This document shows positions 7,516 through 31,164 of a stretch of 61,911 bases of DNA, piece by piece. Origin of the DNA: a virus (taxonomy: Duplodnaviria > Caudoviricetes); IMG/VR virus record IMGVR_UViG_3300043464_001367, positions 1 to 61,911 of that record; one strand, 5' to 3'. The translations under genes were made by a program, and so were the position numbers. Position 1 is the stretch's first letter, and each line of letters starts with the position of its first letter. A model generated the notes under the pieces. It did no database searches and was not told the origin of the DNA. It saw only the letters and a list, made by a program, of their open reading frames with translations.

Positions 7516-9663
7516 TTAGTCCGCAGAATTCGAGATATTATGATTGTTTGCTTCAGAGTCTTCGCTATCTTTCAGATCAAGACCTAGCGATGCCAACTCG
7601 CTCAACTGTGGAACGTTGAACGACTCATTCAAAACCCTTGGTTTATTGTCATTTTCTTCCACTAGCAACTGATCCAAGGCATGGTCCAGAACATCTTGTT
7701 CTTTTTCATCCTCTCCTTCTTTCAAGAGGTGGATGTCAAGAGGAAGTTCGTTTCTCAAGATTTTGTTTCGGCGTTCAAAGTTTTCTAGCATTGAACGCAT
7801 CTCCTTTGACAGATAGGCATCCTTTGTGATTCCAACTTTCAGATCTCGCTTGATGGCTTCTGAAAGTGGGTTTTTCAAGAACTCTGTGTCATAAACGTCA
7901 GAAAGAGACTTGTTTCTTTTTGGATTCAGCATTCTTCTGAAGTCTGGTTGATCGGATTGCATCTCAAGTGAAGATCTTCTTCTGTCTTGATTGCGTTTAT
8001 CCATTTTCACTTGAGGGTTGTCTTTGATAGGCAACTCTCCATCTCCCAAGCTGAAGTTCAAAGCATCCGAGTTGTCTGTTTGAATAGGTGAGGAACCATC
8101 ACCAGCAGGCTGACCTGGAGTTGTTTGAGTTGGTGAATAACCTGAAGGTGCCATTCCACTTGGGGGCTGATAAGAAGTGGTATCGAACGGGTCAACCGTG
8201 TTTTCCCCGGTGTCATCAATCGTGTTGATTGAATCAAGCTCAACAGCAAACTTCTTGTCAGCTTTTAGTTGATCCTTCAACCCTGCGATCTCATCCTCAG
8301 TAAACCCAAGAATCTCTTTGTACAGCCAACTCATTGGCAGGAATCTTGTTTCGATGCTGTCAACCGAGGCAATGATGTCAATCTTTGTCTTCCAGAGATC
8401 AAGCTTCTGTTGAAGTGCAATTGTTGATGGGTTGGAAAGACGTAGTTCAAAATCAATCAGGTCTTCTCCATCAAATCCTTTTGCATAAAGGTGAAGTATC
8501 GCAAGCTTGTTGAGTTCTGCGATCACAATCTTCTGGAGGATCTGGATAGTTCGAGAAAACCTGATGTCTTCTTGAGCTAGTGTAGCTTTGGAAGAAAGCA
8601 TGTCATCATAGCCAAGATAGGCTTTTGGTACACCAAGAGCAGAAAAAAGCTGTGATTCAATGATCTGAATGTCTTCTGTGGCTGTTTGATGAGTTCCACC
8701 TGAGAGTGTGTCGATCTTTGTTCCGCTGTTAGCTCCTCTTACTGGAACAACATAGTCTTCAAGAACATCGGTTGGGTTGAATCTTTCATCCAGCCGCCCG
8801 TTGCTCTTATCAACGGCCATGTTTCCTCTGATGGTTGACATCACCGTCTGCATGTAGTTTGGAATGTCGTTAGGCGCCACAGTTCCAACATCCACATAGA
8901 ACACTCTTCTCTCAGGAGAACGAACCAAGCGGTAAACCAACATGGCATCCAACATCATCACATACTGTCGCCAGATTCGACGTGCTGCTTCAAGGATGCT
9001 AGTTCCATAAGGGTTGAATCTGTCATTGCCAAGAATTCTGAAATGCGTTACTTGCCAGTTTTCAAGTTCTTTCGTGCCCATCTTGTGCCACTTGAAACGA
9101 ACAGCATAAGGATCATTCGAGTCAAATCCCTCATCTCGTTCGACTTCGTTGACATTCATTGCCATCACATTGACAACACCAACCCCAGGAGCCACTTCGT
9201 TATAGAGGAAGAAGTCTCCATACTTGATCAGGTTTCTAATCCAGACACGAAGGTTGAAATCTACATTAAGGATGTCATAGAACAGTTCTTCCAGGGTTTC
9301 CTTCACTCTGGCATTGTCTGAGTAGATGTGAAAGTTCTTTCCGTTCTCATCACCCGAGCAAGCTTCGTCAGCTTGAACGTCAAGAGCCTTGCTGATGATC
9401 GGAGTGTATTCCATCTCAGCAAACTCCATATAACGAGTCATTCGAGACATCATATCTGCGCCACCAAGCATGTTGAATGGCGAGTTCTGTGAGGTTCCTT
9501 TTCTAAATGGCAGTGCCCCCATCCCATTCTTGTTGGCTAGGGCTGCTTGTTTGTCATAGTAGCCAGTGTCGTCATAACCTTTGATTTTACGACGGATTGA
9601 AGGGCCTGATCTGAACAGGCGCGTCAAACGTGTATAAAATGATTCGTCTCGAAATTGTGCCAT
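7516..9663 (-). CDS. gp20: Portal protein, T4 gp20-like
   Basis: PYGTSILEAARRIWRQ, MLVYRLVRSPERRVFYVDVG, EDYVVPVRG, KIDTLSGG, ALGVPKAYL, QEDIRFSRTI motifs. Confidence 0.95.
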   Translation of the reverse strand: MAQFRDESFYTRLTRLFRSGPSIRRKIKGYDDTGYYDKQAALANKNGMGALPFRKGTSQNSPFNMLGGADMMSRMTRYMEFAEMEYTPIISKALDVQADEACSGDENGKNFHIYSDNARVKETLEELFYDILNVDFNLRVWIRNLIKYGDFFLYNEVAPGVGVVNVMAMNVNEVERDEGFDSNDPYAVRFKWHKMGTKELENWQVTHFRILGNDRFNPYGTSILEAARRIWRQYVMMLDAMLVYRLVRSPERRVFYVDVGTVAPNDIPNYMQTVMSTIRGNMAVDKSNGRLDERFNPTDVLEDYVVPVRGANSGTKIDTLSGGTHQTATEDIQIIESQLFSALGVPKAYLGYDDMLSSKATLAQEDIRFSRTIQILQKIVIAELNKLAILHLYAKGFDGEDLIDFELRLSNPSTIALQQKLDLWKTKIDIIASVDSIETRFLPMSWLYKEILGFTEDEIAGLKDQLKADKKFAVELDSINTIDDTGENTVDPFDTTSYQPPSGMAPSGYSPTQTTPGQPAGDGSSPIQTDNSDALNFSLGDGELPIKDNPQVKMDKRNQDRRRSSLEMQSDQPDFRRMLNPKRNKSLSDVYDTEFLKNPLSEAIKRDLKVGITKDAYLSKEMRSMLENFERRNKILRNELPLDIHLLKEGEDEKEQDVLDHALDQLLVEENDNKPRVLNESFNVPQLSELASLGLDLKDSEDSEANNHNISNSAD

Positions 9664-9754
9664 CTGTTTTCCTAAGAATTGAGTTTATTTCATTTTTTGT
9701 CTGATCGGCAAGAAACAACTCATTGCCTTTTAAGGGCAATTTAGCCATAATTAG

Positions 9755-10132
9755 GTGGAAAAGGTTTCAATGATGAACATACCAGTCAATCTTAAACAGA
9801 GAATTGATGAGGTAGCTGACTATGTGGGGAATACCACAACAGACTATCTCACCGTGAAACGACAACTGATCAACAACTTCCCCTCCTCTTCCCGCTCTCT
9901 CTTCTCCGCTCGACACCCCTGCACTAAAAAACATCAACTCAATGATTTCGATCATGCTGTGATCCTCTACTGGTTTGAGCAGACAGGGATTCGATTAAGA
10001 ATTGATCAAGAAAAACTGCATGATCCCGAATGGGAACACAGGAAAAAGGGTTGGGCGCTTACCCTACTTAATGAAGAACGACGCCATGCCAAATCACCCA
10101 AACAACAATCATGCAAACCAACTGGTTCTTGA
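9755..10132 (+). CDS. Hypothetical protein
   Basis: ORF divergent from portal; start may be ATG 9770 after an AAAGG RBS. Confidence 0.55.
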   Translation: MEKVSMMNIPVNLKQRIDEVADYVGNTTTDYLTVKRQLINNFPSSSRSLFSARHPCTKKHQLNDFDHAVILYWFEQTGIRLRIDQEKLHDPEWEHRKKGWALTLLNEERRHAKSPKQQSCKPTGS

Positions 10133-11090
10133 ATTCATAGAAGTGGTTCTTAACGAAGAAAGCGGAAACCCTCTCTACAACACATTTGTTCAACCATTCG
10201 TTGATGTTGGTACGACTGCTGCTTATGGTGTTGAACGACTATCGGCTCAAGTTCAAACCGTTGTCATGGGTTTCTTGTTTGGACTTCCAACACTGTTTGT
10301 TCCATTCCTTGAATACGACTACGAATCCTTCAGAGAAGAAGAGTTTGAACGAGTAGAGCAAATAAAAAAGAAATACGAGAAGGTTTTCAAGGCGAACCTG
10401 GATGCCTTGCAGTCCAACGACGCTTTTGGTGTGGCTTTCTTGTTGGCTCCGTCTCAGGTGCTTGCAGCACAGCTTGCAGTCAAAGCTCCTTACATGGCTA
10501 TTAAAGCCCTTGACGTGCTTACTGGGGCCGCAGCGCCACCGTTAGCTAGATTGGGGCGGGCGCTCAGTGAACCTGCCTCTATTGGCTTCCATGACCCAGG
10601 AAGACACGTCCAAGGTGGTTGGGCTGGTGGTGCGGGTGGAGATTATGGAGGCGATGGCTTCTATGAATCAAAGAACAACCAAGAACCATCCAAAGACACA
10701 ACAGCCAAACTGATTGGCTTGCTTAAGAACAAAAAGATCCTTCGGCAGATCCAACAGAGTCCTGTTGCAAAACAGATGCGACAAGATGGAGTTGAAGTGA
10801 TTGTCAGCCATGTCAAGAGATTCTTGACTGCCAAGGACTATAACCAACTCAGGAAGTTAGCAACCAATGATGAAGGTTTCTCAGCCATCAGCGAAAAACT
10901 TCGTGGTTTGAATCAAACAGGAGAGATCCCAGCACAGGACAATCCTACTGTAACAGCAGCAATGGTTCCAGAACTTAAAAAGACCTACAGGGAATTCTGG
11001 GTTAAACAGCTTCAAACACTGATCAGTCAGTATCCTGAAGCCAAACAAGAGCTACTTCTGGGCATCAAACAAGTTCAAACTCTTTCCTGA
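10086..11090 (+). CDS. Hypothetical late protein
   Basis: Long ORF; start moved to 10086 because TACTTA lies at 10065-10070. Confidence 0.7.
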   Translation: MPNHPNNNHANQLVLEFIEVVLNEESGNPLYNTFVQPFVDVGTTAAYGVERLSAQVQTVVMGFLFGLPTLFVPFLEYDYESFREEEFERVEQIKKKYEKVFKANLDALQSNDAFGVAFLLAPSQVLAAQLAVKAPYMAIKALDVLTGAAAPPLARLGRALSEPASIGFHDPGRHVQGGWAGGAGGDYGGDGFYESKNNQEPSKDTTAKLIGLLKNKKILRQIQQSPVAKQMRQDGVEVIVSHVKRFLTAKDYNQLRKLATNDEGFSAISEKLRGLNQTGEIPAQDNPTVTAAMVPELKKTYREFWVKQLQTLISQYPEAKQELLLGIKQVQTLS

Positions 11091-12698: not shown

Positions 12699-14411
12699 GT
12701 GAATAAGTCAGCAACACAAGCATTAATGGCTGCTTCTCAAGGTGAAGTTCATCAAAAAGTTGTTTTTGGAAGCGAAGCACACACGCAGCTTTTGGAAGGT
12801 GCCACGATTCTAGCCAAAGCCGTTGGGTCCACAATGGGTCCATCGGGGCATAATGTTATTATTGATGGCACTGTGGGAGCACCTCTGATCACAAAAGACG
12901 GTGTTACCGTGGCACGTTCAATTACGTTGAAAGAACGACTTCCTTCCATGGGTGCCGAGCTCTTGAAAGAAGTTGCGTCTAAAACCAACGAGTTGGCAGG
13001 AGACGGCACAACTACCGCAACAGTTCTGGCACATGCAATGCTCAAGGAAGGCATCAAGATGATTGCCACAGGCAGAGATCCAATCTATGTCAAGAAGGGC
13101 ATGGACTTTGCAACAGAAAAGGTCATTGAGACTCTCAAGAAAAACTGCATTCCTGTTCGAAACGCACAGGACATCATCAATGTTGGAACGATCTCTGCAA
13201 ACGGAGATGTGAAGATTGGCGAACTGCTTTCCAGTGCAATCGACAAGGTGGGACAAGACGGCATCATCACGATTGAGCCAGGGAAGTCAACCCAGACAAC
13301 TTTGGAAGTGGCCGAAGGTATGCAGTTTGATGGTGGATATCTTTCACCATACTTTGTGACAAACACAGAGAAAAACACAGTGGAGCTTATCAACCCACTT
13401 GTGTTGTTGACAAACAGGAAGATTTCATCACTGGCTGATTTCATTCCAATTCTAGAGAAGGTGGCAAATGCGGATCGTCCACTTCTTGTTGTGGCAGATG
13501 ACGTTGAAGGAGAAGCTTTGCACACGTTGATTGTCAACAAGTTCAAAGGCACTCTCTTGTCTTGTGCTGTGAAAGCTCCTTCGTATGGAGAGAACAGAAC
13601 TGACATTCTTGGTGACATTGCCACTGTGGTTGGCGGAACTGTTCTTGATGCATCAAATGCTCAAGCGTTGAAAAGTTTGTCTGTGGAATCTCTTGGAGAG
13701 GCTTCCAAGGTTATTGTCACAAGAACCAACACCACCATTGTTGGTAATCAAACAGAGGCTTCAAAGAAGGCTATCGAAGAAAGAGTTAAAGGGCTAAGAA
13801 CCGCACTGAACTCGGACGGCTCTTTGGATGAGTTGCACATTGATCGCTACAAGAAGAGGCTTGCCAAGCTGGCTGGTGGTGTTGCAGTTGTCAAAGTAGG
13901 TGGTTCTACAGAAGTCGAAATCCTTGAAAAGAAGGACCGTGTAGAAGACGCTTTGAACGCAACGGTTGCTGCTGCTCAAGAAGGAATTGTTCCAGGTGGA
14001 GGATCTGCTTTGTTCTATGCACAGAAAGAAGTGGAAAACCAACTCAGTGAAAACACCTCGAAGGGATGGGGAGAAGACTTTCGTGCGGGTGTTCAAGTGA
14101 TCTTGAACTCTTGCAAGGTGCCTCTCTACACAATTGTTGCCAACACAGGCAAGTCACCCGAGGTTGTGATGGATAAGCTTTCGAACCACAGAGAAACTGC
14201 TGTCTATCATACGGATAAAGCCAAGAACCAAGAAAACAAACGCTATGGTTATGATGCAGCCAATGGCGAATATGGTGATTTGATAGACAAAGGCATCATT
14301 GATCCTGTTAAAGTAACACGTTATGCTCTTGAACATGCAACTTCTGTTGTTGGTTTGATGCTAACATGCAACGCAGTAGTCTTGAATGAGAAAGACAAGT
14401 CGGATAGCTGA
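12699..14411 (+). CDS. groEL: Chaperonin GroEL (phage-encoded)
   Basis: TMGPSG, ITKDGVTVA, AGDGTTTATVLA, EGMQFDGGYLSPYF, LAKLAGGVAVVKVG, EKKDRVEDALNAT, GIVPGGG, GIIDPVKVTR. Confidence 0.97.
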   Translation: MNKSATQALMAASQGEVHQKVVFGSEAHTQLLEGATILAKAVGSTMGPSGHNVIIDGTVGAPLITKDGVTVARSITLKERLPSMGAELLKEVASKTNELAGDGTTTATVLAHAMLKEGIKMIATGRDPIYVKKGMDFATEKVIETLKKNCIPVRNAQDIINVGTISANGDVKIGELLSSAIDKVGQDGIITIEPGKSTQTTLEVAEGMQFDGGYLSPYFVTNTEKNTVELINPLVLLTNRKISSLADFIPILEKVANADRPLLVVADDVEGEALHTLIVNKFKGTLLSCAVKAPSYGENRTDILGDIATVVGGTVLDASNAQALKSLSVESLGEASKVIVTRTNTTIVGNQTEASKKAIEERVKGLRTALNSDGSLDELHIDRYKKRLAKLAGGVAVVKVGGSTEVEILEKKDRVEDALNATVAAAQEGIVPGGGSALFYAQKEVENQLSENTSKGWGEDFRAGVQVILNSCKVPLYTIVANTGKSPEVVMDKLSNHRETAVYHTDKAKNQENKRYGYDAANGEYGDLIDKGIIDPVKVTRYALEHATSVVGLMLTCNAVVLNEKDKSDS

Positions 14412-21472: not shown

Positions 21473-21840
21473 CACCCAAAAAAAAATCTGTAAAAAGACA
21501 CACTTCAACACTGAGGTACAACGTAATTCTTGCTGGCGTTCAACTCACCTTGAAAGAAGCCGGTGAGAAGCTCAATGGCATCAGGCGTCAAAGCAAGGGA
21601 AGGAACTTCTCTCCTTCTGAGCGTGACATCAGGATGCAACTGCGTTTGATGAAGGAAGCTGTTGCTCTGGCCGAAGAAGAGCTTGACAAGCACATGACTG
21701 TCTATGATGAAGCCAAGTTTTTCTCCGTAACCAACCCGGTTGCGCTACCCAATGGTTCATGCCCCGAGTGTAGAGACAAAGATTGCAATGGGTGTTGTGA
21801 CAGCGGCACACCAGAAGTCAAAGTGAGCGAAGAGGCATGA
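21463..21840 (+). CDS. Hypothetical protein with Cys cluster
   Basis: CPECRDKDCNGCC. Confidence 0.6.
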   Translation: MSVTPKKKSVKRHTSTLRYNVILAGVQLTLKEAGEKLNGIRRQSKGRNFSPSERDIRMQLRLMKEAVALAEEELDKHMTVYDEAKFFSVTNPVALPNGSCPECRDKDCNGCCDSGTPEVKVSEEA

Positions 21841-22859
21841 TTCCAAGGATATCGGCCTATACCACTGTCAGGAATGCAGATTCAATGGACTACCCTTACT
21901 TGGAATCCATTGAATCTATGCTTCAGTTTGCTGATGAAGTTGTTGTTCTGGATTCCAGTGATGGGGTTGATGACACATTGATCAAACTCAACAACCTTGC
22001 AAGAACTGATAAACGTGTTCGGGTTGTTCATTCAGATCAGTTTGATTGGAAGGCTCCAAATCATGGAATCTTTGATGGTCAAACAAAAGCTCTTGCTAGA
22101 TCTCTTTGCAACAATGACTTCTTGTGGCAGTTCGATACTGATGAGATCGTTCACGAGCTTGATGCGCCCAAGATCCGTCCCTTGATTGAAAAACTCCAGT
22201 ACCTTCAGAAATGCCCGATCATGGCTTTGCCGGTTGTTGAGTATTGGGGATCAACCGGCAAAGTAAGAGCAGACATCAATCCTTGGAAGGCAAGGCTGTC
22301 ACGCAACCTCCCAGACATAACACACGGCATCCCTTCTCACCTGAGAAGAACGTTCAACGGTTTGGACTACGCATCACCAGGAACAGACACATGTGACTAC
22401 ATCTCAAAGAGCACAGGTAAAGTTCTTCCTGTCATGGGTTTCATGAGTCAAGACATAGAAGCGGTTCGTTTGATGTCTCTGAGAAATCACAAACTACTGC
22501 CATCTTACGAGAAGTGGTTCAATGAAACGGTTGATCAGATCCCAGGAGTGTTTCACTATTCCTGGTTCTCTGTTGAGAGAAAGATCAAACAATACAAGGT
22601 TTTTTGGACTTCGTTCTGGAAGGCAATGTATGGACCTGATTCATCACAAAACAAAGATCCAAACTGGAATCCGTTCTTTGAAGTTCCATGGGATCAAGTC
22701 ACTGACCAGATGATCAAAGACAAAGCAGTTGAACTTGAAACAAAAACAGGTGGTCACATCTTTCATTCAAGATGGACAGGAACCCAAACTCCACATGTCA
22801 CAATTCACAGAACCCATCCCAGAATGATCAAAGAGTGGGTTGCTGGACATGGAAAATGA
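21837..22859 (+). CDS. Glycosyltransferase family 2-like
   Basis: ADEVVVLDSS..DDT, WQFDTDE (DxD motif). Confidence 0.85.
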   Translation: MIPRISAYTTVRNADSMDYPYLESIESMLQFADEVVVLDSSDGVDDTLIKLNNLARTDKRVRVVHSDQFDWKAPNHGIFDGQTKALARSLCNNDFLWQFDTDEIVHELDAPKIRPLIEKLQYLQKCPIMALPVVEYWGSTGKVRADINPWKARLSRNLPDITHGIPSHLRRTFNGLDYASPGTDTCDYISKSTGKVLPVMGFMSQDIEAVRLMSLRNHKLLPSYEKWFNETVDQIPGVFHYSWFSVERKIKQYKVFWTSFWKAMYGPDSSQNKDPNWNPFFEVPWDQVTDQMIKDKAVELETKTGGHIFHSRWTGTQTPHVTIHRTHPRMIKEWVAGHGK

Positions 22860-23013
22860 ACTGGTTTACAAGAAAAACACTAGAAGGTTGAAAGCTGTTT
22901 GGTCGATAGAAATGGCAGACGATCTTAGTGGTTTTTACGGAATCATCCATGACAGCCCACTGACCAGGAAACTCTTAAAGGCTGGCTTGAAAATAAAAAC
23001 CAGAGCTAGGTAA
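22849..23013 (+). CDS. 54 aa mini-protein: MCP fragment plus KAGLKI module
   Basis: MENELVYKKNTRRLKAVWSIEMADDLSGFYGIIHDSPLTRKLLKAGLKIKTRAR; 14/22 identical to MCP TRKLRARWSPEMAQDLTAFYSI; not in ORF track. Confidence 0.75.
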   Translation: MENELVYKKNTRRLKAVWSIEMADDLSGFYGIIHDSPLTRKLLKAGLKIKTRAR

Positions 23014-23035
23014 CTGTCAGGACAACAAAAGAACA

Positions 23036-23386
23036 ATGTTATTTTACAACCGAACAGAACTTAGACGCGGAGACATCTTTCACGGAAAATGCACTTGTTT
23101 TGAGGTGTTTAACGAGTCCCCCTCTATTGCTGAACCAAATGCTTTGTTTTTGTTTGAAGTCCAGCTTGTTGCGTTGAATCGTGTCCAAAACATTCCATGC
23201 GGCGAATATGAACGTCGTTCGTTTTCGGATAAACTCCTAGATGTTATTCTTTTAAGATCTATCAAGCGTTGTTTGCACACCGGCTGGGTTTGCAAAGCAT
23301 TTAACAGGTCGGGTTTCTTGGGTTTTTTCTTGGTGGATGAAGACCAACTGCGTGAAATGGAAGTTATAGGTAAAGAGTTTATATGA
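23036..23386 (+). CDS. Hypothetical protein
   Basis: 116 aa, ATGA overlap with downstream GT. Confidence 0.6.
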   Translation: MLFYNRTELRRGDIFHGKCTCFEVFNESPSIAEPNALFLFEVQLVALNRVQNIPCGEYERRSFSDKLLDVILLRSIKRCLHTGWVCKAFNRSGFLGFFLVDEDQLREMEVIGKEFI

Positions 23387-24225
23387 GTGAAACACAAAAC
23401 AACTGCACTTGTGAAGCAATTAAAAAACACATGGATTTTAAATGGAACCCTTCTGAGCAAGAGCCTCACCACCCAGACTGCTCAGACCATGAAGTGACAG
23501 CAACAGATCTTCCACTGATCACAGTGGTTGTGCCATGCTACAACCATGGCAGATACCTTGAAGAGTGTGTTGAAAGTCTGTTGAATCAGACCTACAGCCT
23601 TCTTGAGATCATCATTGTCAACGATGGCTCTTCTGACAACACAGAAGAAGTAAGCAAGAGGCTCCTTGGTCGTGACAAAAGAATCAAGTACATCGGGTTT
23701 CCAAAGAACACAGGCAAGTGGAACTGTTTGAACACTGCGATTGACAACTGTAAGGGTTTGATCATCACCTGCCAGGATGCCGACGACCTAGCCACTCCAG
23801 ATCGCATAGAAAGGCAGTTTAAAGCCCTTCAAGCAACCGAGAGTGTCCATAACCTGTGCGGGTTCTATCACTGCCATTCTGAAGAGGATGTGGCAAGACA
23901 CAAGAACTCCAGAGTGGAAGGAACGATGAAGATCATTCCATCCGAGACTGTTTCCCAGATGGTTGAGTACGGATTCACAACCCCAGGAATCAACCATTAT
24001 TTTACTGCTGATTTTGAAACAGCCGGAACATCAGCCATGTTTCTCAAGGCTCTTTGGAACGTTGGGATCAGATTCAATCCCCCAGGTGTTGGACTTCGAA
24101 TTGCCAACTCCGAGGATTCAGACTTTAACGTTCGAGCAACAATGATTCTAAGAAACACCACGGTCTTGGCAGAACATCTGTACCTTTACAGAAGAGGAAC
24201 GAGCACAAACAATGAGTCGAGATGA
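23383..24225 (+). CDS. Glycosyltransferase family 2
   Basis: ITVVVPCYN, EIIIVNDGSSD, QDADD, SEDSDF. Confidence 0.92.
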   Translation: MSETQNNCTCEAIKKHMDFKWNPSEQEPHHPDCSDHEVTATDLPLITVVVPCYNHGRYLEECVESLLNQTYSLLEIIIVNDGSSDNTEEVSKRLLGRDKRIKYIGFPKNTGKWNCLNTAIDNCKGLIITCQDADDLATPDRIERQFKALQATESVHNLCGFYHCHSEEDVARHKNSRVEGTMKIIPSETVSQMVEYGFTTPGINHYFTADFETAGTSAMFLKALWNVGIRFNPPGVGLRIANSEDSDFNVRATMILRNTTVLAEHLYLYRRGTSTNNESR

Positions 24226-24517
24226 TGGTTTAAAGACTGGCCTTAACATCTTCTGGTTTTTCTCTGGCGCACATCAAGTAAAACCACTGGGAAAATGGAA
24301 ATATTGGCATGGCCATGGGCCAGCGATGAAAATCGAGATAAGTCTTGATGAAACAGACATCTCCCCGGAAGATGCATATAGAATTACAAACGAAATCCTT
24401 TTGGATTTCAATATCGATTTCCAAGTAAGATGGAAAGAGAGATTGGAGCTCTTTAAAAGGAATAAAAAACTACGATCAAGGATAACACCACCTTGTTTAG
24501 AATGCGAAGAGGAGTAA
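24212..24517 (+). CDS. Hypothetical protein
   Basis: 101 aa inserted ORF overlapping GT stop. Confidence 0.55.
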   Translation: MSRDDGLKTGLNIFWFFSGAHQVKPLGKWKYWHGHGPAMKIEISLDETDISPEDAYRITNEILLDFNIDFQVRWKERLELFKRNKKLRSRITPPCLECEEE

Positions 24518-24522
24518 GAAAC

Positions 24523-24738
24523 ATGGGATTAAGTGCTGGTGCTATCTGTGCAATGAGTGATGAAGAATTTGATGAATGGTCAACGTATTATGAGAAACCG
24601 CCAATAGATGGGTGGAAGTTGGTAAAGGAAGAAATCCACAATTCTGTCGAACTGAACGCTGTTGTTAAAGTATTGGTTGAACGAGATGTGCGAATGGGTA
24701 CATTGCGCACTTCCTTAGAAGTCATTTCAAAGAAATAA
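24523..24738 (+). CDS. Hypothetical protein
   Basis: GAGGAG RBS before ATG 24523. Confidence 0.6.
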   Translation: MGLSAGAICAMSDEEFDEWSTYYEKPPIDGWKLVKEEIHNSVELNAVVKVLVERDVRMGTLRTSLEVISKK

Positions 24739-24743
24739 AGACC

Positions 24744-24938
24744 ATGCCATCAATAAAAATTGAAAAGAAATCACTGGGAAGCAACTACAGAGAAAACGCT
24801 CTTGAACCTTCAAGTTGGAATCCAACAAGAAACATTTTCTACATTGATGTTTCAAACTTATCTCCCAAAGAAACCGAGATGTTCATGAATGGGGTTCAAT
24901 CCACTTTGAAAGCAATGAAAGAATTGGCAAACACATGA
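24744..24938 (+). CDS. 64 aa mini-protein containing a portal clip-region fragment
   Basis: NPTRNIFYIDVSNLSPKETEMFMNGVQSTLK vs portal SPERRVFYVDVGTVAPNDIPNYMQTVMSTIR (11/31 identical, ungapped). Confidence 0.7.
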   Translation: MPSIKIEKKSLGSNYRENALEPSSWNPTRNIFYIDVSNLSPKETEMFMNGVQSTLKAMKELANT

Positions 24939-25633
24939 AAATAAGCTTGTTAACACCAACCAGAGGCAGACCTCATGCAATGCAGCGACTCTGGGAGTCT
25001 GCATGGAACACAGCGGATAACAAAACGGATCTGGAGATCGTGTTCTACATGGATCACGACGATGTTCATTCTCTTGAGCAGTTTGAGAAGATGGACTCTC
25101 CACAACATCTTGGCATCTGTGGCCAGCGCATTGTTCTTTCAGAGATGTGGAATGAGTGTTCCAAGGTTGCAACAGGAGAGATCTTGATGCACTGCGGCGA
25201 TGACATCATCTTTAGATCCCAGGGCTGGGACACGCTTGTCAGAAAACACATTGGTTCATTTCCAGACAAGATAGCATTTGTCCACGGCATGGATGGAATT
25301 CAAAACGAAAAACTAGGAACACATGGCTTCTTGCACCGTAATTGGGTTAATACTGTTGGTTATTTTGTCCCTCCTTATTTTAGTTGCGACTATAACGATA
25401 CATGGCTGACTGAGGTTTCTTCCATGATAGGAAGAAGAATCTATGAGCCAAGAATCTACACAGAGCACATGCACTGGGCTGTTGGAAAACAACCTAGAGA
25501 TCAAACTTACTCAGACACAATGGCAAGAGGTCACAGAGACAACGTAACTGCGATGTATGAGTCAATGCGTCCAAAACGCAAAGAAGATGCCGAGAAACTC
25601 AGAGAGTTCATTAAAAGCGGTAAATGGACATGA
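24935..25633 (+). CDS. Glycosyltransferase family 2-like
   Basis: ISLLTPTRGR, YMDHDD, CGDD, DYNDTW. Confidence 0.85.
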   Translation: MKISLLTPTRGRPHAMQRLWESAWNTADNKTDLEIVFYMDHDDVHSLEQFEKMDSPQHLGICGQRIVLSEMWNECSKVATGEILMHCGDDIIFRSQGWDTLVRKHIGSFPDKIAFVHGMDGIQNEKLGTHGFLHRNWVNTVGYFVPPYFSCDYNDTWLTEVSSMIGRRIYEPRIYTEHMHWAVGKQPRDQTYSDTMARGHRDNVTAMYESMRPKRKEDAEKLREFIKSGKWT

Positions 25634-25935
25634 ACTATTATGGAAAATATTGCAGAGGCAATCCGTCGGGATATTTGATGTATTTGTCACTGTCTCAAAA
25701 CAACGACCCAACCAAATGTGGATTTTTTGTTTGCATTGACAACGATGATCACAATGTTTCAAAAGACTTCTACGAACTTCGAAAAGTAATAAAAATTCTT
25801 AATCGAAAGGGTTTGGATGTTAAGGTGTTTATCAATCCTAGATTTGCAGACCAGGCTTCCATGGAAGCCTGGGTTCAAAAACAGTTACCAGGACATGCAA
25901 TCTTTCTTAAATACCAAGAAGAAATCGAACAATGA
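25624..25935 (+). CDS. Hypothetical protein
   Basis: 103 aa inserted ORF with ATGA overlap; contains LNRKGLDVKV. Confidence 0.55.
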   Translation: MDMNYYGKYCRGNPSGYLMYLSLSQNNDPTKCGFFVCIDNDDHNVSKDFYELRKVIKILNRKGLDVKVFINPRFADQASMEAWVQKQLPGHAIFLKYQEEIEQ

Positions 25936-26996
25936 ATAAACTACCAGTATTCCAACCAACCAGCCAACTAGAACCCGCAATAAAAGAAAGTGTGAGCTAT
26001 GAGCAGCTTACTCAAGCCTATTCAACCTGGGGTGGTAAGCTGCTTCAACACACAGACGTTTTGCATGGGATTCAGGTGCAAAAAGAGTTTCGGCCCATCA
26101 CTGTGCAGCTTGCCCCAACAGAAGCTTGTGATTCAAACTGTCCATTCTGTTCTGTGTCTTGGAGATCTGTTGACAAAAAGATTCCATTCTCAGTGATTGA
26201 GAAAGGCTTGAGAGAGTTCAGGGCTCTTGGTGCTAAGTCCATTGAACTAACAGGCGGTGGCAATCCATTGATCTACAGAGATGGGACCAAGAACATCAAC
26301 GACGTGATTGAGTTGGCTCATGACCTTGGTTATGAGATAGGCGTTATCACAAACACTGAGAAGCTGTCTCGGCATATCAAACCAGAGAATGCCGACAAGC
26401 TATCTTGGATTCGAATCTCTCTGATCAAGCTGGATGAAGGAAAGAATCCTGAAGACTATGATTTTACTGGGTTTCCCATTGACAAGATGGGGTTCTCCTA
26501 CATCATCTATGAAGGAACCACTGTTCAGTCCATTGAGAAGATTGCCAAGCTTGTGGAGCTAAACCCTGAGATCAAGTTCGTTAGAATTGCATCCGATTGC
26601 TTGACCGAAGAGTCACTAACCATCAAGAATGACTGGGGTGACATTGTGAAAACACTGGATGTTCACCAGAAGTTCTTCATCAAAGAAATCAATGACAGTT
26701 TCCATGCCTATGAAGGTGGATGCTGGGTTGGGATGATCAGACCATACTGGGTTTGGAATGGTGTCTACATGTGTACTTCTCATGTGCTGAAACACAGAAA
26801 CTACCATGACACCTGGAAGTTGTGTGATGGCGACAAGATCAAAGAAACATGGGATGCCATGAATGCTCGCTTCAAAGCAGGTCAGAATCCATATGACATC
26901 AAGATCAAAGAGGAGTGCTGGCACTGTTATTACTATAACAACAACCGGCTTCTTGCTGATGTTATCAACGAACTGCCTGACAAAAACTTTGCATAA
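25932..26996 (+). CDS. Radical SAM protein with SPASM/twitch-like C-terminus
   Basis: CDSNCPFC (CxxxCxxC), TGGGNP, C-terminal Cys motifs CW..YMC..CWHCYY. Confidence 0.92.
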   Translation: MNKLPVFQPTSQLEPAIKESVSYEQLTQAYSTWGGKLLQHTDVLHGIQVQKEFRPITVQLAPTEACDSNCPFCSVSWRSVDKKIPFSVIEKGLREFRALGAKSIELTGGGNPLIYRDGTKNINDVIELAHDLGYEIGVITNTEKLSRHIKPENADKLSWIRISLIKLDEGKNPEDYDFTGFPIDKMGFSYIIYEGTTVQSIEKIAKLVELNPEIKFVRIASDCLTEESLTIKNDWGDIVKTLDVHQKFFIKEINDSFHAYEGGCWVGMIRPYWVWNGVYMCTSHVLKHRNYHDTWKLCDGDKIKETWDAMNARFKAGQNPYDIKIKEECWHCYYYNNNRLLADVINELPDKNFA

Positions 26997-27020
26997 CAAT
27001 TGTTTAGGAAACAAAGAAAG

Positions 27021-27167
27021 ATGCAACGAAACCAACTTCTGTTGATGATCAGGAAATCAGGTTTAAAAGTTGATTATTCAATCAAACAAGTGATAATACA
27101 AATATCAGAAGATATTGACCGAATGATTTTGGATGATTTGATAAAACTGGGGGCTCGTCGTGAGTAA
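27021..27167 (+). CDS. 48 aa mini-protein: KSGLKV module plus MCP fragment
   Basis: MQRNQLLLMIRKSGLKVDYSIKQVIIQISEDIDRMILDDLIKLGARRE; ISEDIDRMILDDL vs MCP ITLDIDREILNDL 9/13 identical. Confidence 0.7.
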   Translation: MQRNQLLLMIRKSGLKVDYSIKQVIIQISEDIDRMILDDLIKLGARRE

Positions 27168-27333
27168 GCCCAGTTTGACGATCAATGCGTTTTTCACTGA
27201 GTTTCTTGAGCAGTCAAGTCCAATCTTTATTCCTTATGTGCCTTTGCAAGTAACGCCATCGTTTGTTGTTAACAACCCTTTGCATGGGAAACTAAGAAAA
27301 GCAGGATTGAAGATTCGCGTCAAGCATCTTTGA
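27160..27333 (+). CDS. 57 aa mini-protein: MCP fragment plus KAGLKI module
   Basis: (V/M)SKPSLTINAFFTEFLEQSSPIFIPYVPLQVTPSFVVNNPLHGKLRKAGLKIRVKHL vs MCP FLESGYIYAPYVPLILTP. Confidence 0.7.
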   Translation: MSKPSLTINAFFTEFLEQSSPIFIPYVPLQVTPSFVVNNPLHGKLRKAGLKIRVKHL

Positions 27334-27345
27334 ACTAGCGTCTTA

Positions 27346-27588
27346 GTGCCTTTTCGCAAACAAACCATGGAGGTTGTTATGAGCATAAGCATGACACAGG
27401 CTCGAATCTACAGAGCGCAAATGTACAATCAAGGAAAGCTTCTGGCAAAGATCAAAAAATCGGGTTTGAAAGTTGAATCTTTGGCAGAAAGAATGATAAA
27501 ACAAATATCAAAAGATTTTGATCAGATGGCTTCGGTTAATTTGGTTGGATTTAGTAAACTGGTGCCTCTTTGTAAACAAACGAGTTAG
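27346..27588 (+). CDS. Mini-protein paralogous to 27021-27167 (KSGLKV module plus diverged MCP helix)
   Basis: LLAKIKKSGLKVESLAERMIKQISKDFDQM vs LLLMIRKSGLKVDYSIKQVIIQISEDIDRM; true start may be downstream after GGAGG. Confidence 0.65.
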   Translation: MPFRKQTMEVVMSISMTQARIYRAQMYNQGKLLAKIKKSGLKVESLAERMIKQISKDFDQMASVNLVGFSKLVPLCKQTS

Positions 27589-28197
27589 ATGATGTCAAAC
27601 ACAGATCCATTAACATACAATGCCGATTACTACAAAACCTCAAACTATGCTGACTACATGGAGCGTTCAGACCGCTACAAAAAGACAGCATATGAGATTT
27701 CCAACCTGCTGAAGCAGTTAAGTCTTGCAACCAACGACTCTTGTTTGCTTGATTACGGCTGTGCAATTGGCTTTCTGATGGAGGGCTTCAAGGAAGTTGG
27801 ACACAAGAACGTCATAGGCTTTGAAGTCTCAGAATGGGCTGCTGGTGAAGCTCTGAACCGTGGCAACGCAGTCACTACCAACCTTGAAAAGCTAGCAGAC
27901 AGAAACATTGATGTCATGGTTTCTTTGGATGTGTTTGAACACATGACTGACGAAGAAGTTTTTAGTGCCATCGACAACACAAACCCAAGAGCTCTTGTTG
28001 TGAGAATCCCAGTTTCAACGGATGGTGGGAAAACTTTTCACCTTGCTGTTTCAAGAGCAGACAAAACCCACATCAACTGTAAAACTTCGGATCAGTGGAT
28101 TGAGTTCTTTGCTTCTATTGGGTACAGAACCTTCTTGAGACTCAATCTGTTCACTGTCTATGACACACCAGGAGTGCTGTGTTTGTTGATACTATGA
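27589..28197 (+). CDS. Class I SAM-dependent methyltransferase
   Basis: LLDYGCAIG motif I, GFEVS, DVFEHM. Confidence 0.9.
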   Translation: MMSNTDPLTYNADYYKTSNYADYMERSDRYKKTAYEISNLLKQLSLATNDSCLLDYGCAIGFLMEGFKEVGHKNVIGFEVSEWAAGEALNRGNAVTTNLEKLADRNIDVMVSLDVFEHMTDEEVFSAIDNTNPRALVVRIPVSTDGGKTFHLAVSRADKTHINCKTSDQWIEFFASIGYRTFLRLNLFTVYDTPGVLCLLIL

Positions 28198-28637
28198 CAA
28201 AAGAAAATACAATGCAGTTTGAAACTGATTTAAAAGAAAGATTCTTTAAAGCGCAACCCGACGGCACTGTGCATGAGATAACAGAAAAAGAGTACAGGGG
28301 TGGTTTTAGCAGACTTTATCCTTACGCACACTTTCACGATCCCGGTGCAACTGCCAAGGATGTTCTGATAAAACTGGGAAAAGGCTTGGAAACTGGCTCT
28401 GTTTCAATCGAAGAGGCCGTTGGTTTCCTTAACGCTTCGAAGCTTGTGTTTCTTAACACACACACCAACATGCTTTCGCAGTGGTTTTACGAGGAACCAG
28501 ACTCGTATAGTCGAGCAATTTTCCACAACGCCACTTCTTGTTCTTGTTTGTGTGGACCTCTGAGTGATCCTTGCAATGAACAAGGGCCTGGTTCCAAAGT
28601 AAGCTTTTCGTTTAAGAAAGAAGAAACACTGAGATGA
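28179..28637 (+). CDS. Hypothetical protein
   Basis: ORF ends KKEETLR in an ATGA overlap with ugd stub 1; start possibly 28194. Confidence 0.6.
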   Translation: MFVDTMTKENTMQFETDLKERFFKAQPDGTVHEITEKEYRGGFSRLYPYAHFHDPGATAKDVLIKLGKGLETGSVSIEEAVGFLNASKLVFLNTHTNMLSQWFYEEPDSYSRAIFHNATSCSCLCGPLSDPCNEQGPGSKVSFSFKKEETLR

Positions 28638-28705
28638 AGATTGGATTTATGGGCCTTGGGAAATTGGGTTGATTATTTATTCGCATGAAGTTCACGGCTC
28701 CTAAA
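28615..28705 (+). repeat. 91-bp direct repeat, copy 1
   Basis: 77/91 nt identical to 28991-29081 by manual alignment. Confidence 0.95.
28634..28672 (+). pseudogene. ugd 5' stub 1 (MKIGFMGLGKLG-stop)
   Basis: Matches the N-terminus MRIGMMGLGKLG of the 29848 gene. Confidence 0.85.
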
Positions 28706-28719
28706 TATGAGAATGTCAA

Positions 28720-29013
28720 ATGGAAACGATTCATCGCACAGATTGTTTTGAAATTCAAGAAGGTCCAGCAGTTTGTCTGATTCATCCTGATGGCACTATT
28801 CAGGTGCAACGTCTTTTGATGAAAATAACTCGTGACGAAAATGGCATTATCATAGATGTTGAGAAGAGTGGCATTGTAACTTTGCCAGAACTCTATGTGA
28901 TTGGAGAACAGATCAACGAAGATGAAACATGGACTGGTCCAGTAATCTATAAGCCACACGATTATACACCATACAAACTTGTTCAAGTAGAGAAAGAAGA
29001 AACATCAAGATGA
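28720..29013 (+). CDS. Hypothetical protein between the direct repeats
   Basis: 97 aa, ends EKEETSR in an ATGA overlap with ugd stub 2. Confidence 0.6.
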   Translation: METIHRTDCFEIQEGPAVCLIHPDGTIQVQRLLMKITRDENGIIIDVEKSGIVTLPELYVIGEQINEDETWTGPVIYKPHDYTPYKLVQVEKEETSR

Positions 29014-29081
29014 AAATTGGATTCATGGGTTTGGGTAAGTTGGGTTGATTACTTATTTGCATGAAGTTCACAGCACCTAAA
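28991..29081 (+). repeat. 91-bp direct repeat, copy 2
   Basis: See copy 1; offset 376 bp. Confidence 0.95.
29010..29048 (+). pseudogene. ugd 5' stub 2 (MKIGFMGLGKLG-stop)
   Basis: Same peptide as stub 1, followed by TACTTA (29050-29055) and the endonuclease ATG. Confidence 0.85.
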
Positions 29082-29846
29082 GGCAAAAAGCTCTGCGGCA
29101 TATACCAAATCACTAACTTGATTGATGGTAAATGTTACTACGGCCAATCTTATGATATACGCAGAAGGTTTCGTGACCACTACCAACATCTCATGAAAGG
29201 CAATCATGACAACCAGTATCTTCAACATGCTTTCAATAAACATGGCTCTGATGCCTTTGAGATGAGAGTAATTGAACTGCTTCCAACTAACGAACTAAAC
29301 GTTGCCGAACAACTACTGCTTGATGAACATGTTGGCAAAAAACACTGTTACAACATCATGCGTAGTGTTGACCAAACCTTTCGAGGACAAAAACACTCGC
29401 CAGAAGCCCTTGAGAAGATGAGTAAGACATGGTTTGGTAAAGGTGAAAATCATACCAATTTTGGCAAACATCTATCGGGGGATATTCGTCAAAAAATTAG
29501 CGAAGCTCATAAAGGTAAAACTCTCTCTGAAGAGACAAAGAAAAAACTTAGTGCGCTTAATTCCGGCGAGAGCCATCCGTTTTATGGCAAATACGGCCCC
29601 GCACATCCTGCGTATGGTCACAAGTGGTCAGAGGAAACTCGTGCCAAAATGACCATTCCAATGCAAAAACATCAAACCAAAGTCGTACAATACGATAGAG
29701 GTTCCGGCAATATACTGGCTGAGTTTGAAAGCTTGAAAACTGCGGAAAATGCAACAGGCGTTGCGTATCAAGCTATTTCTCGATGTTGTCAAGGGATAAG
29801 GCCATCTGCTGGAGGCTTTATCTGGAAATATAAAGGAACAAAATAA
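29061..29846 (+). mobile_element. Free-standing GIY-YIG homing endonuclease with NUMOD3 repeats and a NUMOD1/IENR1-like C-terminus
   Basis: GIYQITN..YYGQS..RRF..H; HSPEALEKMS, LSEETKKKLS repeats; VVQYD..EFES..AISRCC..AGGFIWKY. Confidence 0.92.
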
Positions 29847-29847
29847 C

Positions 29848-31164
29848 ATGCGTATCGGAATGATGGGCCTCGGAAAATTGGGTTTGCCTTGTGCTCTTGC
29901 TTCTGAGGCTGCTGGACATGATGTTGTTGGGTATGATCTCAACCCTGCTGTTGCTGGTTATATCAGAGACAAGAAGATTCCATATCGTGAGGAAGGCACG
30001 CCTGAGTTGCTTGTAAACACCAAGATCAGGGTTGTGTCTGTTGACGAGGTTGTTGCTCACTCAGACTTGATCTTTGTGGCAGTTCAAACGCCGCACAACC
30101 CAAGGTTTGAAGGCACAACTCGAATCCCAGAAGAGCGAGTTGACTTTGACTACACCTACCTGATTGATGCTTGCACTCAACTCAATGCTGCAATCGAAGC
30201 ACAGGGAGTTGACAAACCTGTTGTTGTTATTTCAACCGTTCTTCCAGGCACCATGGATTCAAAGGTTCTTCCTTTGCTTGGGCCTCATTTCAAACTGTGT
30301 TACAATCCATTCTTCATTGCGATGGGAACCACGGTTTATGACTTCACACACCCAGAGTTCGTGCTGTTTGGAATGAGTGACGAGAAGACTGCTGATCTGG
30401 CTGAGTCTTTCTACAAGACCATTCACAAAGCTCCGTTCTACCGTTGCTCTATCAAGAGTGCTGAGTTGATCAAGGTTGCTTACAACACCTTCATCTCCAC
30501 GAAGCTTGCTTTCGTGAATAACCTGATGGAAGTCTGTTATCATACTGGTGCTGATGTTGACGAAGTTACCTCGGCACTTAAACTCGCAACTGAAAGACTG
30601 ATCTCTCCAAAGTACCTCAATGCTGGAATGGGAGATGGTGGTGGGTGCCACCCAAGAGACAACATCGCTCTTTCCTGGCTCTCCAGAAAACTTGGAATGA
30701 CCTATGACTTCCACGAAGCCATCATGGTTGCAAGAGAGAAGCAGACGGAGTTCCTGGCAAACTTGATTCAAAAACACATTCATGCGATTGATTACGAGAA
30801 ATCACAATCGCTAGAAGTTGGACATGCATACAAAACTCTTCCAGTCATCATTCTTGGAAAAGCTTTCAAGGAACAAACCAACCTTGAAGTTGGTTCTCCT
30901 TCGATACTGTTGAAAAACATCTTGGCTGAACGTGGAATAGAAGCTAAGATGTATGATCCTTGGATTGATCCATGTGATGACAAGACAGTAAATCCTTATG
31001 AGGATGCTGCTCCTCACTTGTTCTTCATAGGAACTCATCATGCTGTCTTTGCCGACTACAAGTTCCCCAAGGGCTCAGTTGTGGTTGATCCATGGAGAAT
31101 GATCAAAGACCAAGATGGAGTCGTTGTCATTCGGGTTGGTGAAGCTACAAAAACACCAGTTTGA
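29848..31164 (+). CDS. ugd: UDP-glucose/GDP-mannose dehydrogenase family protein
   Basis: GLGKLG Rossmann motif, FVAVQTP, ISTVLPG, AELIKVAYNTF, GDGGGCHPRD, GKAFK, YDP. Confidence 0.93.
   Translation: MRIGMMGLGKLGLPCALASEAAGHDVVGYDLNPAVAGYIRDKKIPYREEGTPELLVNTKIRVVSVDEVVAHSDLIFVAVQTPHNPRFEGTTRIPEERVDFDYTYLIDACTQLNAAIEAQGVDKPVVVISTVLPGTMDSKVLPLLGPHFKLCYNPFFIAMGTTVYDFTHPEFVLFGMSDEKTADLAESFYKTIHKAPFYRCSIKSAELIKVAYNTFISTKLAFVNNLMEVCYHTGADVDEVTSALKLATERLISPKYLNAGMGDGGGCHPRDNIALSWLSRKLGMTYDFHEAIMVAREKQTEFLANLIQKHIHAIDYEKSQSLEVGHAYKTLPVIILGKAFKEQTNLEVGSPSILLKNILAERGIEAKMYDPWIDPCDDKTVNPYEDAAPHLFFIGTHHAVFADYKFPKGSVVVDPWRMIKDQDGVVVIRVGEATKTPV

Follow-up and report, generated by a model that had tools for sequence, protein, structure and literature searches.

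Small genes joining capsid-like segments to a short basic peptide in a T4-like phage

Small open reading frames of the window

The DNA analysed here, referred to as the window, is the whole 61,911-base virus record IMGVR_UViG_3300043464_001367, which has an estimated completeness of 17%. An earlier note on this DNA had pointed to a short motif joined to capsid fragments in four small open reading frames (ORFs), and all four copies were found both in the ORF translations and in the DNA. The motif, here called T1, is a short basic peptide with a consensus of approximately hydrophobic-x-x-K-L-R/K-K/R-A/S-G-L-K-V/I/T. It very probably marks a family of small phage-encoded proteins, about 45-115 amino acids (aa) long, in which one or more segments derived from the major capsid protein (MCP) are combined with this non-capsid peptide.

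The units lie in two intergenic slots of a gene cluster on the plus strand (21837-28197). The first slot is bounded by a GT2-like glycosyltransferase (GT) gene (21837-22859, plus strand) and a GT2 gene (23383-24225, plus strand), and the second by a radical SAM gene (25932-26996, plus strand) and a methyltransferase gene (27589-28197, plus strand). The parent family of the capsid-like pieces is that of the window's own MCP, a T4-type protein of 637 aa encoded on the minus strand (854-2767; Pfam Gp23, 4.6e-66), residues 350-617 of which align with T4 gp23 220-478 and residues 66-123 with the start of mature gp23. The parent family of one further piece is that of the portal protein (7516-9663, minus strand, 715 aa; Portal_T4, 2.9e-64). 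As the earlier note had it, T1 is missing from both the MCP and the portal frames.

The small ORFs were compared by blastp with the seven structural proteins of the window. ORF 22849 (22849-23013, plus strand, 54 aa) consists of an MCP-like piece (nt 22879-22974) followed by T1 (SPLTRKLLKAGLKIK, nt 22954-22998, aa 36-50), with the stop four codons on. Residues 11-42 were 53% identical to MCP 393-424 (E 4e-7), and Pfam Gp23 was matched at E 0.003 and 9.6e-4 (17.5 bits), under the curated cut-off of 24.4 bits; two gene-called relatives are 98% and 91% identical to this ORF. ORF 27021 (27021-27167, plus strand, 48 aa) has T1 (NQLLLMIRKSGLKVD, nt 27030-27074) near its N-terminus and then a piece like MCP 428-441 (nt 27102-27143; residues 28-41, 64% identity over 14 aa, E 0.015), and its relatives are P0155 and P0163. 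ORF 27160 (27160-27333, plus strand, 57 aa) begins with a GTG overlapping the previous stop and carries an MCP C-terminal piece (nt 27202-27270, similar to MCP 581-603) followed by T1 (NPLHGKLRKAGLKIR, nt 27274-27318). Its residues 15-52 aligned with MCP 581-620 at E 0.001, and its stop lies four codons past the T1 string and six residues past the GLK core. ORF 27367/27379 (27379-27588, plus strand, 69 aa) carries T1 (GKLLAKIKKSGLKVE, nt 27433-27477, within the frame 27346-27588) and then a helix-like piece that is a paralogue of the one in ORF 27021; no significant match to the MCP was obtained for it. Its reading frame is open from position 27334, with the ATG at 27379, which follows a GGAGG, as the likely start, and three proteins of 69 aa each (P0154, P0157 and P0158) begin at the equivalent ATG. 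A constant module attached on either side to different capsid segments, as had been proposed, is thus seen with pieces like MCP 393-424, 428-441 and 581-620.

ORFs 27021 and 27379 are tandem paralogues, sharing a 105-nt repeat with 71% identity, the second copy of which lies at 27439-27543. For this reason the four T1 copies do not represent four independent events. They fall into two unit types, one in which T1 is followed by the helix piece (27021 and 27379) and one in which a capsid piece is followed by T1 and a stop (22849 and 27160), and the units of the window arose via tandem duplication, truncation and patchy exchange between copies. ORF 27160 is in frame with ORF 27379, with one TGA (27331-27333) between them, and the residues after this codon (VPFRKQTMEVV) are faintly like the capsid segment following the insert in the full 'mini-MCP-C' proteins described below. 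From its alignment with the mini-MCP-C family, ORF 27160 is a truncated member, and the two ORFs may be the two parts of a single ancestral gene.

Only 14-41 residues of each ORF align, out of the 376 positions of the Gp23 model, and ORFs 27021, 27160 and 27367 had no match to Pfam Gp23 at E <= 1. Another small ORF of the cluster, ORF 24744 (24744-24938, plus strand, 64 aa), carries a piece like portal 249-279 (residues 26-56, 35% identity, E 3e-6) and matched Pfam Portal_T4 at E 0.0014 and 3.9e-4, under the cut-off. Neither T1 nor the second peptide T2 described below was found in it, and it has no relative among 14 related loci (L006-L019) that were fetched via the radical SAM protein. When the 137 intergenic small ORFs of the window and the eight closer loci were compared with Pfam, Gp23 was matched by four and Portal_T4 by one; no other virion family was found, and the other matches were DUF1653, a genuine small family with four members, and scattered families with one or two members. 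The enrichment among the small ORFs is therefore specific to capsid and portal.

Specificity of the T1 motif

Chance origin of the motif is excluded. The pattern L..[KM][LI].K[AS]GLK[IV] occurs four times in the six-frame translation of the window and not once in 300 dinucleotide-preserving shuffles, and the core K[AS]GLK[IV] occurs four times against a shuffle mean of 0.037 and a maximum of 1 in as many shuffles of the same kind. A hidden Markov model (HMM) of T1 was built from 15 instances, all from metagenomic proteins outside the window to avoid circularity. It ranked the four sites first to fourth among the 1,849 open frames (93,114 residues), with E-values of 7e-5 (ORF 27160), 0.005 (22849), 0.009 (27379) and 0.017 (27021), the next match standing at E 0.095. 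In contrast, a weak copy (LNRKGLDVK) that had been suspected in ORF 25624 does not belong to the family, as the HMM gave no match to it at E <= 50. This ORF (25624-25935, plus strand) is conserved in L006-L013, where its relatives read RKGMNIQV or RKGLNVQV at that position, and it has no capsid match.

T1 is not a capsid sequence but a short peptide joined to or inserted into MCP-like pieces. The HMM reached at best E 0.43 in the 1.15 Mb of DNA surrounding 137 genuine MCP genes from other phages, and over 1.28 Mb around other phages' true MCP genes it gave nothing better than E 0.4. A degenerate DNA pattern for LRKAGLK was also searched for in viral contigs (at least 119 stretches), and the in-frame matches listed were all unrelated, except for three contigs already known. 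That T1 might be a diverged copy of the capsid segment PRKGVMTRYGKKM was ruled out, as L013 carries both in tandem; in the alignment of L013 with MCP a 19-residue T1-bearing insert stands between ...TPTIF and ...SRKGIMSRYG.

Related loci and a second peptide

In the eight closer loci, which were compared in detail, small ORFs built from MCP pieces occupy the same GT/GT2 and radical SAM/methyltransferase slots. T1 recurs at syntenic places in L008, L011, L012 and L013, so that recurrence in related genomes, which had been named as a check on the motif, was observed. The peptide reads LRKAGLK followed by V, T or M in L011-L013 and LRRAGIRV in the L008 orthologue of ORF 22849, and acidic variants (FEAAGIEI and FKMANLEV, read by eye) stand at the equivalent places in L006. 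Loci L008-L010 carry mostly another constant peptide, T2, of the form [S/N/G]PFR[F/W/R/M]T[C/V/N]L (14 pattern matches and four variants found by eye), which is attached to pieces like MCP 80-109, 372-408, 411-439 and 557-608. T2 is unrelated to T1 and takes its place in these sister phages. The earlier picture of a single constant module therefore holds for the units that share T1, but not for those in which T2 replaces it.

The T1 HMM was also run over the full length of two related records, of 189 kb and 129 kb (7,624 open frames). All six matches at E < 0.001 lay in the two slots, as did weaker ones at E 0.079 and 0.5, and the sole match elsewhere had E 0.62. In the window and the related loci the starts and stops of the units overlap, as in coupled translation. 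Between T1 or T2 and the stop codon lie anywhere from 0 to over 24 residues, and many units carry T1 at the N-terminus or internally. Some units of L011-L013 overlap in different frames and look degenerate.

The family beyond the window

When 1.84 billion representative proteins were searched exhaustively with the 279-aa ORF of L013, 188 matches were obtained, and the counts given here are those among the matches listed (the best 150 of 188). T1 was present in 15 of the 58 proteins shorter than 170 aa, in 11 of these 58 within 45 residues after an APYVP anchor, and in none of the 16 proteins of 170-299 aa or the 76 of at least 300 aa (0 of 92 with at least 170 aa). The spacing from APYVP to RKG..RY, an empirical criterion of our own, was 19-20 residues in all 49 proteins of at least 300 aa in which it could be measured (27 of the 76 were unmeasurable by pattern), against 28-41 residues in mini-proteins with T1 and 47-92 in those with other inserts. 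The proteins of about 78-113 aa are stand-alone copies of the capsid C-terminus (mini-MCP-C); in those that carry T1 it is an internal insert of about 20 residues, placed in the loop that joins the APYVP and RKG..RY strands.

At least seven divergent mini-MCP-C members share a homologous start position just before a Y.VY.D motif, and some of the genes sit on contigs of 115-319 kb. The Gp23 cut-off of 24.4 bits was passed by P0009 (40.0), P0027 (39.6), P0033 (29.8) and P0110 (29.1), and P0007 (22.7) fell below it. Given that T1 is confined to small proteins and to two slots, and that T2 substitutes for it in sister phages, the modular design is real. Of the two-part arrangement put forward earlier, the combination of a capsid-like piece with a constant non-capsid peptide stood, but the peptide is not a terminal tag in the fuller relatives, where it is internal, and a docking, localisation or degradation role for it is conjectural.

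In a distant clade (L360, L365 and L367) a similar gene with a T1-like insert (KINKIFGLGLNIK) lies beside tail-fibre-like genes. A neighbour there codes for a protein of 269 aa that is glycoside-hydrolase-like by eye, and the glycosyltransferase/radical SAM cluster was not found there. In L364, a 108-aa ORF (10518-10844) containing a capsid C-terminal fragment (FESGYVYAPYIPMQVT) and no T1 lies about 340 nt downstream of the MCP gene (8480-10180), and this fragment may show how such capsid fragments arise. Context searches with P0009, P0027 and P0007 returned nearly all true MCP genes, and new mini ORFs came only from L360, L364, L365 and L367. A tblastn search of GenBank phages with P0009 gave only nine MCP genes, and word-indexed protein searches gave close relatives only and no longer fused form, which is weak evidence.

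Selection and variation

Over 13 copies of the seven-codon core of T1, the proportion of synonymous differences (pS) was 0.84, that is, saturated, and that of non-synonymous differences (pN) was 0.12; the pairs in this comparison are not independent, and the pattern was uniform. The copies use all codon families for Leu, Arg, Ala and Gly (CTN/TTR, CGN/AGR, GCN and GGN vary). Since the copies vary at synonymous sites while the amino acids are kept, T1 is under strong purifying selection and is not a DNA- or RNA-level element. Between L011 and L013 orthologues the ratio of non-synonymous to synonymous substitution rates (dN/dS) was 0.37 and 0.24.

The MCP-like pieces show 41-67% amino-acid identity to MCP, with third-codon-position identity of 0.17-0.44 against a random value of 0.25 +/- 0.08, in segments that were picked because they align. 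The exceptions, measured against the window MCP, were the ORF 22849 piece (0.59) and its L008 orthologue (0.52). That protein identity is kept despite mostly near-random third positions agrees with the earlier assertion that the fragments are not random debris, and both the peptide and most of the capsid-like pieces appear, from these substitution patterns, to be kept by selection on the protein.

The piece in ORF 22849 differs in this respect. Against its own MCP its codon-position identity was flat (0.66, 0.59 and 0.59) and dN/dS was about 0.86. Its third-position identity was higher to its own MCP (0.59) than to the MCP of a sister phage (0.44), and a 29-nt patch (22899-22927) matched the homologous stretch of the MCP gene, which lies on the opposite strand, at 86% identity (E 0.012, from a very small search space). 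No other homologous patch was found when the four unit regions were compared by blastn with the MCP and portal genes. The piece may be younger than the others, or may have been patched from the MCP gene. Gene conversion from the phage's own MCP was rejected as a general rule, as only ORF 22849 has raised third-position identity.

Near-identical DNA is present in runs labelled lake-water metagenome, and no RNA run was among those listed. In four such runs the window ORFs were free of insertions and deletions (indels), and T1 was unchanged wherever it was covered. One lake-water strain carries 14 clustered changes at 27076-27099, again without indels, by which the linker of ORF 27021 reads like that of ORF 27379, as it does in P0155. 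This change looks like patchy exchange between the tandem paralogues.

Predicted structure

Two AlphaFold models were of low confidence, with mean predicted local distance difference test (pLDDT) values of 53.3 and 60.8. In both, the best-supported element was a helix that stops immediately ahead of the conserved Gly and gives way to an extended stretch. IF2_N (Pfam PF04760) was matched by three of the nine proteins of the T1-plus-helix type, all from one related subclade, the best value being that of P0005 (25.6 bits against a cut-off of 25.3, E 1.1e-5). The match spans T1 and the following helix, and the model (pLDDT 60.8) consists of a helix, an extended loop and a helix. The window ORFs had no match to IF2_N at E <= 1, and the resemblance is a lead only. 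Among solved structures a fold search gave no match at E <= 0.001 and a profile search of the PDB none below E 0.36, and the ESM Atlas returned nothing usable.

Possible function

By the topology of the HK97 fold, the copied segments presumably correspond to the N-arm, the second E-loop strand with the helix following it, the spine helix, and the P-domain hairpin with the last strands, which we take to be largely the elements that make contacts between capsid subunits. On this ground the reading preferred here is that the mini-proteins mimic MCP contacts. They would bind unassembled MCP, or a partner of MCP, by imitating its contact elements, and T1, or T2 in the sister phages, would cap the mimic or give it a shared handle to one partner. 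They could in this way control or chaperone the assembly of the phage itself, form a minor component of the virion, or interfere with a relative infecting the same cell. As an account of how the mini-proteins work, namely binding by mimicry with T1 or T2 as a cap or handle, this is possible though doubtful; the whole statement, identity of the family plus its mode of working, is advanced tentatively, with rather less than even confidence.

Several points weigh against this reading. Since the conserved segments are present in the MCP of the phage as well, an inhibitor would also act against the phage that encodes it. The naming of the fold elements depends on the general topology of the HK97 fold, and pieces of the A-domain might be too diverged to detect. 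The degenerate units of L011-L013 mean that not every unit can be functional, and the dN/dS of the ORF 22849 piece suggests that this piece may be drifting. With such low pLDDT values the mini-proteins are not expected to fold by themselves, which would fit folding on a partner and would equally fit junk. Moreover, the context in the distant clade, with its tail-fibre-like genes, differs from that in the window, so that no single neighbourhood points to a partner. A more speculative extension, 'capsid-peptide display', in which arrays of tiny proteins would present conserved contact or recognition segments of capsid and portal on a T1 or T2 handle, be renewed by duplication and exchange, and either blind host sensors or report to other functions of the phage on the supply of unassembled capsid protein, is rather improbable; if true, it would be a new class of phage self-mimicry.

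The main rival to contact mimicry is that the units are immune decoys or sponges, imitating the conserved parts of capsid and portal seen by bacterial sensors and so occupying or misleading these sensors, with T1 or T2 serving to multimerise or inactivate. The restriction to MCP and portal fragments among the 137 small ORFs is in keeping with this, as are the fast turnover of units, their tandem duplication, the homing endonucleases nearby and the location in an accessory gene cluster. The two conserved phage proteins sensed by Avs1-4 are terminase and portal, and portal would accordingly count among the triggers. Capsid proteins are reported as triggers in a recent study (10.64898/2026.01.04.697583), in which MCPs are sensed by Avs7 and Dsr1, the Avs7 complex incorporates EF-Tu, and Avs1-4 respond to 'two conserved phage proteins'. 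According to the same study (10.64898/2026.01.04.697583), however, recognition by the Avs sensors involves entire folds and extended interfaces, which a piece of 15-40 aa would not reproduce. Nor was any defence or anti-defence family matched, in searches that did not include the PADLOC library. The units of L008-L010 copy MCP 80-109, which, going by the alignment of the window MCP with gp23 and by gp23 numbering, probably corresponds to the Gol region of T4, the activator of Lit. This likeness would favour a decoy, but a Gol-type peptide activates Lit and does not block it. On balance decoys are unlikely.

A smaller probability still is given to the units being adaptors or regulators for the neighbouring sugar-modification enzymes, the capsid-like part finding the capsid and T1 docking the enzyme, or being leader peptides by which the genes downstream are tuned. 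Their location fits: in the window and the eight closer loci the units are found only in the two slots of the cluster, and in the 189- and 129-kb records essentially nowhere else. The overlapping starts and stops point the same way. In the distant clade, however, the mini-MCP gene has tail-fibre-like genes and no enzyme cluster beside it, and the L364 fragment lies just after the MCP gene. The radical SAM protein, moreover, matches only generic models, far under their cut-offs, and has no peptide-maturase signature, and the variable distance of T1 and T2 from the stop, with T1 often N-terminal or internal, does not fit a stalling peptide. Two related ideas were rejected. For a precursor of a ribosomally synthesised and post-translationally modified peptide (RiPP), the best NCBIfam match of the radical SAM protein was viperin-like at 44.7 bits against a cut-off of 180, Pfam reported only Radical_SAM, and RiPP maturase models gave 17-21 bits against cut-offs of 300-650. 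Ribosome stalling, bypass and split inteins were discarded in view of the same variable position of the peptide and the lack of intein-type residues.

The units could also be non-functional debris, leftovers of partial capsid gene duplications that recombination and the movement of homing endonucleases have spread, in which case the shared motif would reflect no more than the common ancestry of the copies. Gene fragments are indeed produced at this locus, as seen from the homing endonuclease at 29061-29846 and the adjoining 91-nt repeat of a dehydrogenase start. The L364 fragment after its MCP gene, the degenerate and overlapping units, the high dN/dS of the ORF 22849 piece and the presence of one tandem duplicate pair among the four window copies are all of the kind that debris would leave. 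Selection data argue the other way: the T1 peptide is kept at saturated synonymous sites, the capsid-like pieces keep protein similarity while third positions are near random, and the four lake-water runs contain no indels. Even divergent members agree in where they start, in their length and in the site of the insertion, and T1 was absent from all 92 listed proteins of at least 170 aa. Overall, debris is disfavoured by the selection data and improbable as a general account, although individual degenerate units may be debris.

A DNA- or RNA-level repeat (a promoter, recombination site or structured RNA) that merely happens to translate alike is hardly credible: GGN-TTG-AAR does resemble a -35 hexamer and one sigma-70-like site overlaps the copy at 27466, but the T1 copies differ mainly at synonymous positions with the amino acids constant, promoter-like sites (20 against 13.2 +/- 3.9) and terminators were not significantly above shuffles, the T4 late-promoter octamer had no match, and the only DNA repeat between copies is that of the 27021/27379 pair.

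If the units are functional, as the signatures of selection suggest, large T4-like phages code for small trans-acting pieces of their own shell protein. This would give a handle on how very large capsids control subunit contacts before assembly, or on how phages cope with sensors of capsid and portal. For annotation, short Gp23 matches in small ORFs need not be pseudogenes.

Relation to known systems

Homology links the variable parts of the units to short segments that are conserved in gp23 (Pfam PF07068), but the units have 45-115 aa against 450-670 aa, contain one or two segments only, and carry an added peptide that is missing from the 92 listed proteins of at least 170 aa. They also stand apart from gp24, which is a whole-length paralogue of gp23. 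The internal proteins of T-even phages share a capsid-targeting sequence and are encoded at a polymorphic locus; their tag always stands at the extreme N-terminus, and the prohead protease cuts it off at a site ending in Glu. The units resemble them in that one short constant peptide is borne by small proteins whose repertoire changes, encoded in a variable part of the genome of T4-like phages. In contrast, T1 is basic, has no Glu in or directly after its core, and may be N-terminal, C-terminal or internal, and the variable part of the units is capsid-derived. The Gol peptide of T4 gp23 is a short capsid segment active on its own, and the L008-L010 units, like it, contain the equivalent N-terminal segment as a short linear capsid piece. 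Gol is, however, part of the capsid gene itself and not a separate gene with an added peptide, and the window units copy other segments.

Among animals, capsid-derived interference factors of the Fv1 type provide a case in which a shortened relative of a capsid protein acts in trans on capsids, and the palindromic elements of Rickettsia are in-frame selfish insertions, in which one short peptide-coding insert occurs at several sites. Both belong to different organisms, and neither has any sequence relation to the units. T1 is not a recently mobile DNA element, because its copies share no DNA identity, and the near-identical DNA repeats of repeat-spacer arrays are likewise missing (pS 0.84). 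Fragments of conserved genes near free-standing homing endonucleases, or 'fractured genes', are described in three papers (PMC2677866, PMC2988022 and PMC10448857), and the footprint at 28615-29081 of the window is of this kind. Compared with such fragments, the capsid units carry a selected extra peptide, lack intein motifs and are not adjacent to the parent gene; they lie 1.5-6 kb from the endonuclease and about 20 kb from the MCP gene on the other strand. No prior description of small capsid-fragment genes with a shared peptide was found in the open-access literature, and the gene family appears to be undescribed.

The phage and its gene neighbourhood

No DNA match to the window was found in GenBank phage records. 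By protein, the nearest MCPs are those of a Microcystis phage, Flavobacterium phages, a Streptococcus phage, Rhodothermus phage RM378 and two uncultured phages (484 and 595 kb). The window MCP contains about 200 extra Gly/Ser/Thr-rich residues between Pfam Gp23 positions 73 and 107, and the glycosyltransferase cluster near a Gly/Ser/Thr-rich MCP block raises the question of capsid glycosylation. A chaperonin of the Cpn60/GroEL type (12699-14411; Pfam, 1.6e-63) could bear on the folding of the 637-aa MCP. The window also codes for a primase-polymerase and an IMPDH/GMP-reductase-like protein.

Downstream of the unit-bearing slots lie a GIY-YIG homing endonuclease gene (29061-29846) and a UDP-glucose dehydrogenase gene (29848-31164), and the sugar-modification cluster also includes GT1 genes. 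A 91-nt direct repeat with 85% identity is found at 28615-28705 and 28991-29081, each copy consisting of the first 12 codons of the dehydrogenase (MKIGFMGLGKLG, stop) followed by the start of the endonuclease (MKFTAPK). The repeat looks like the footprint left when the endonuclease inserted at the dehydrogenase gene's 5' end. After the first copy there is a 97-aa ORF (28720-29013), residues 74-86 of which are weakly like MCP 598-610 (E 0.037).

GIY-YIG genes vary in position and presence among the sister clusters (L010, 8304-9128; L011, 7059-7709 and 8933-9715; L013, 7059-7619 and 9177-9959); those of the sister loci were read from ORF translations, and the Pfam check covers the window copy. 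The UDP-glucose dehydrogenase of L012 (8718-11156) has 812 aa, compared with 423-440 aa in the sister loci. Its extra block, which starts after GGGC and ends at HNC, looks, on these junction residues, like an intein.

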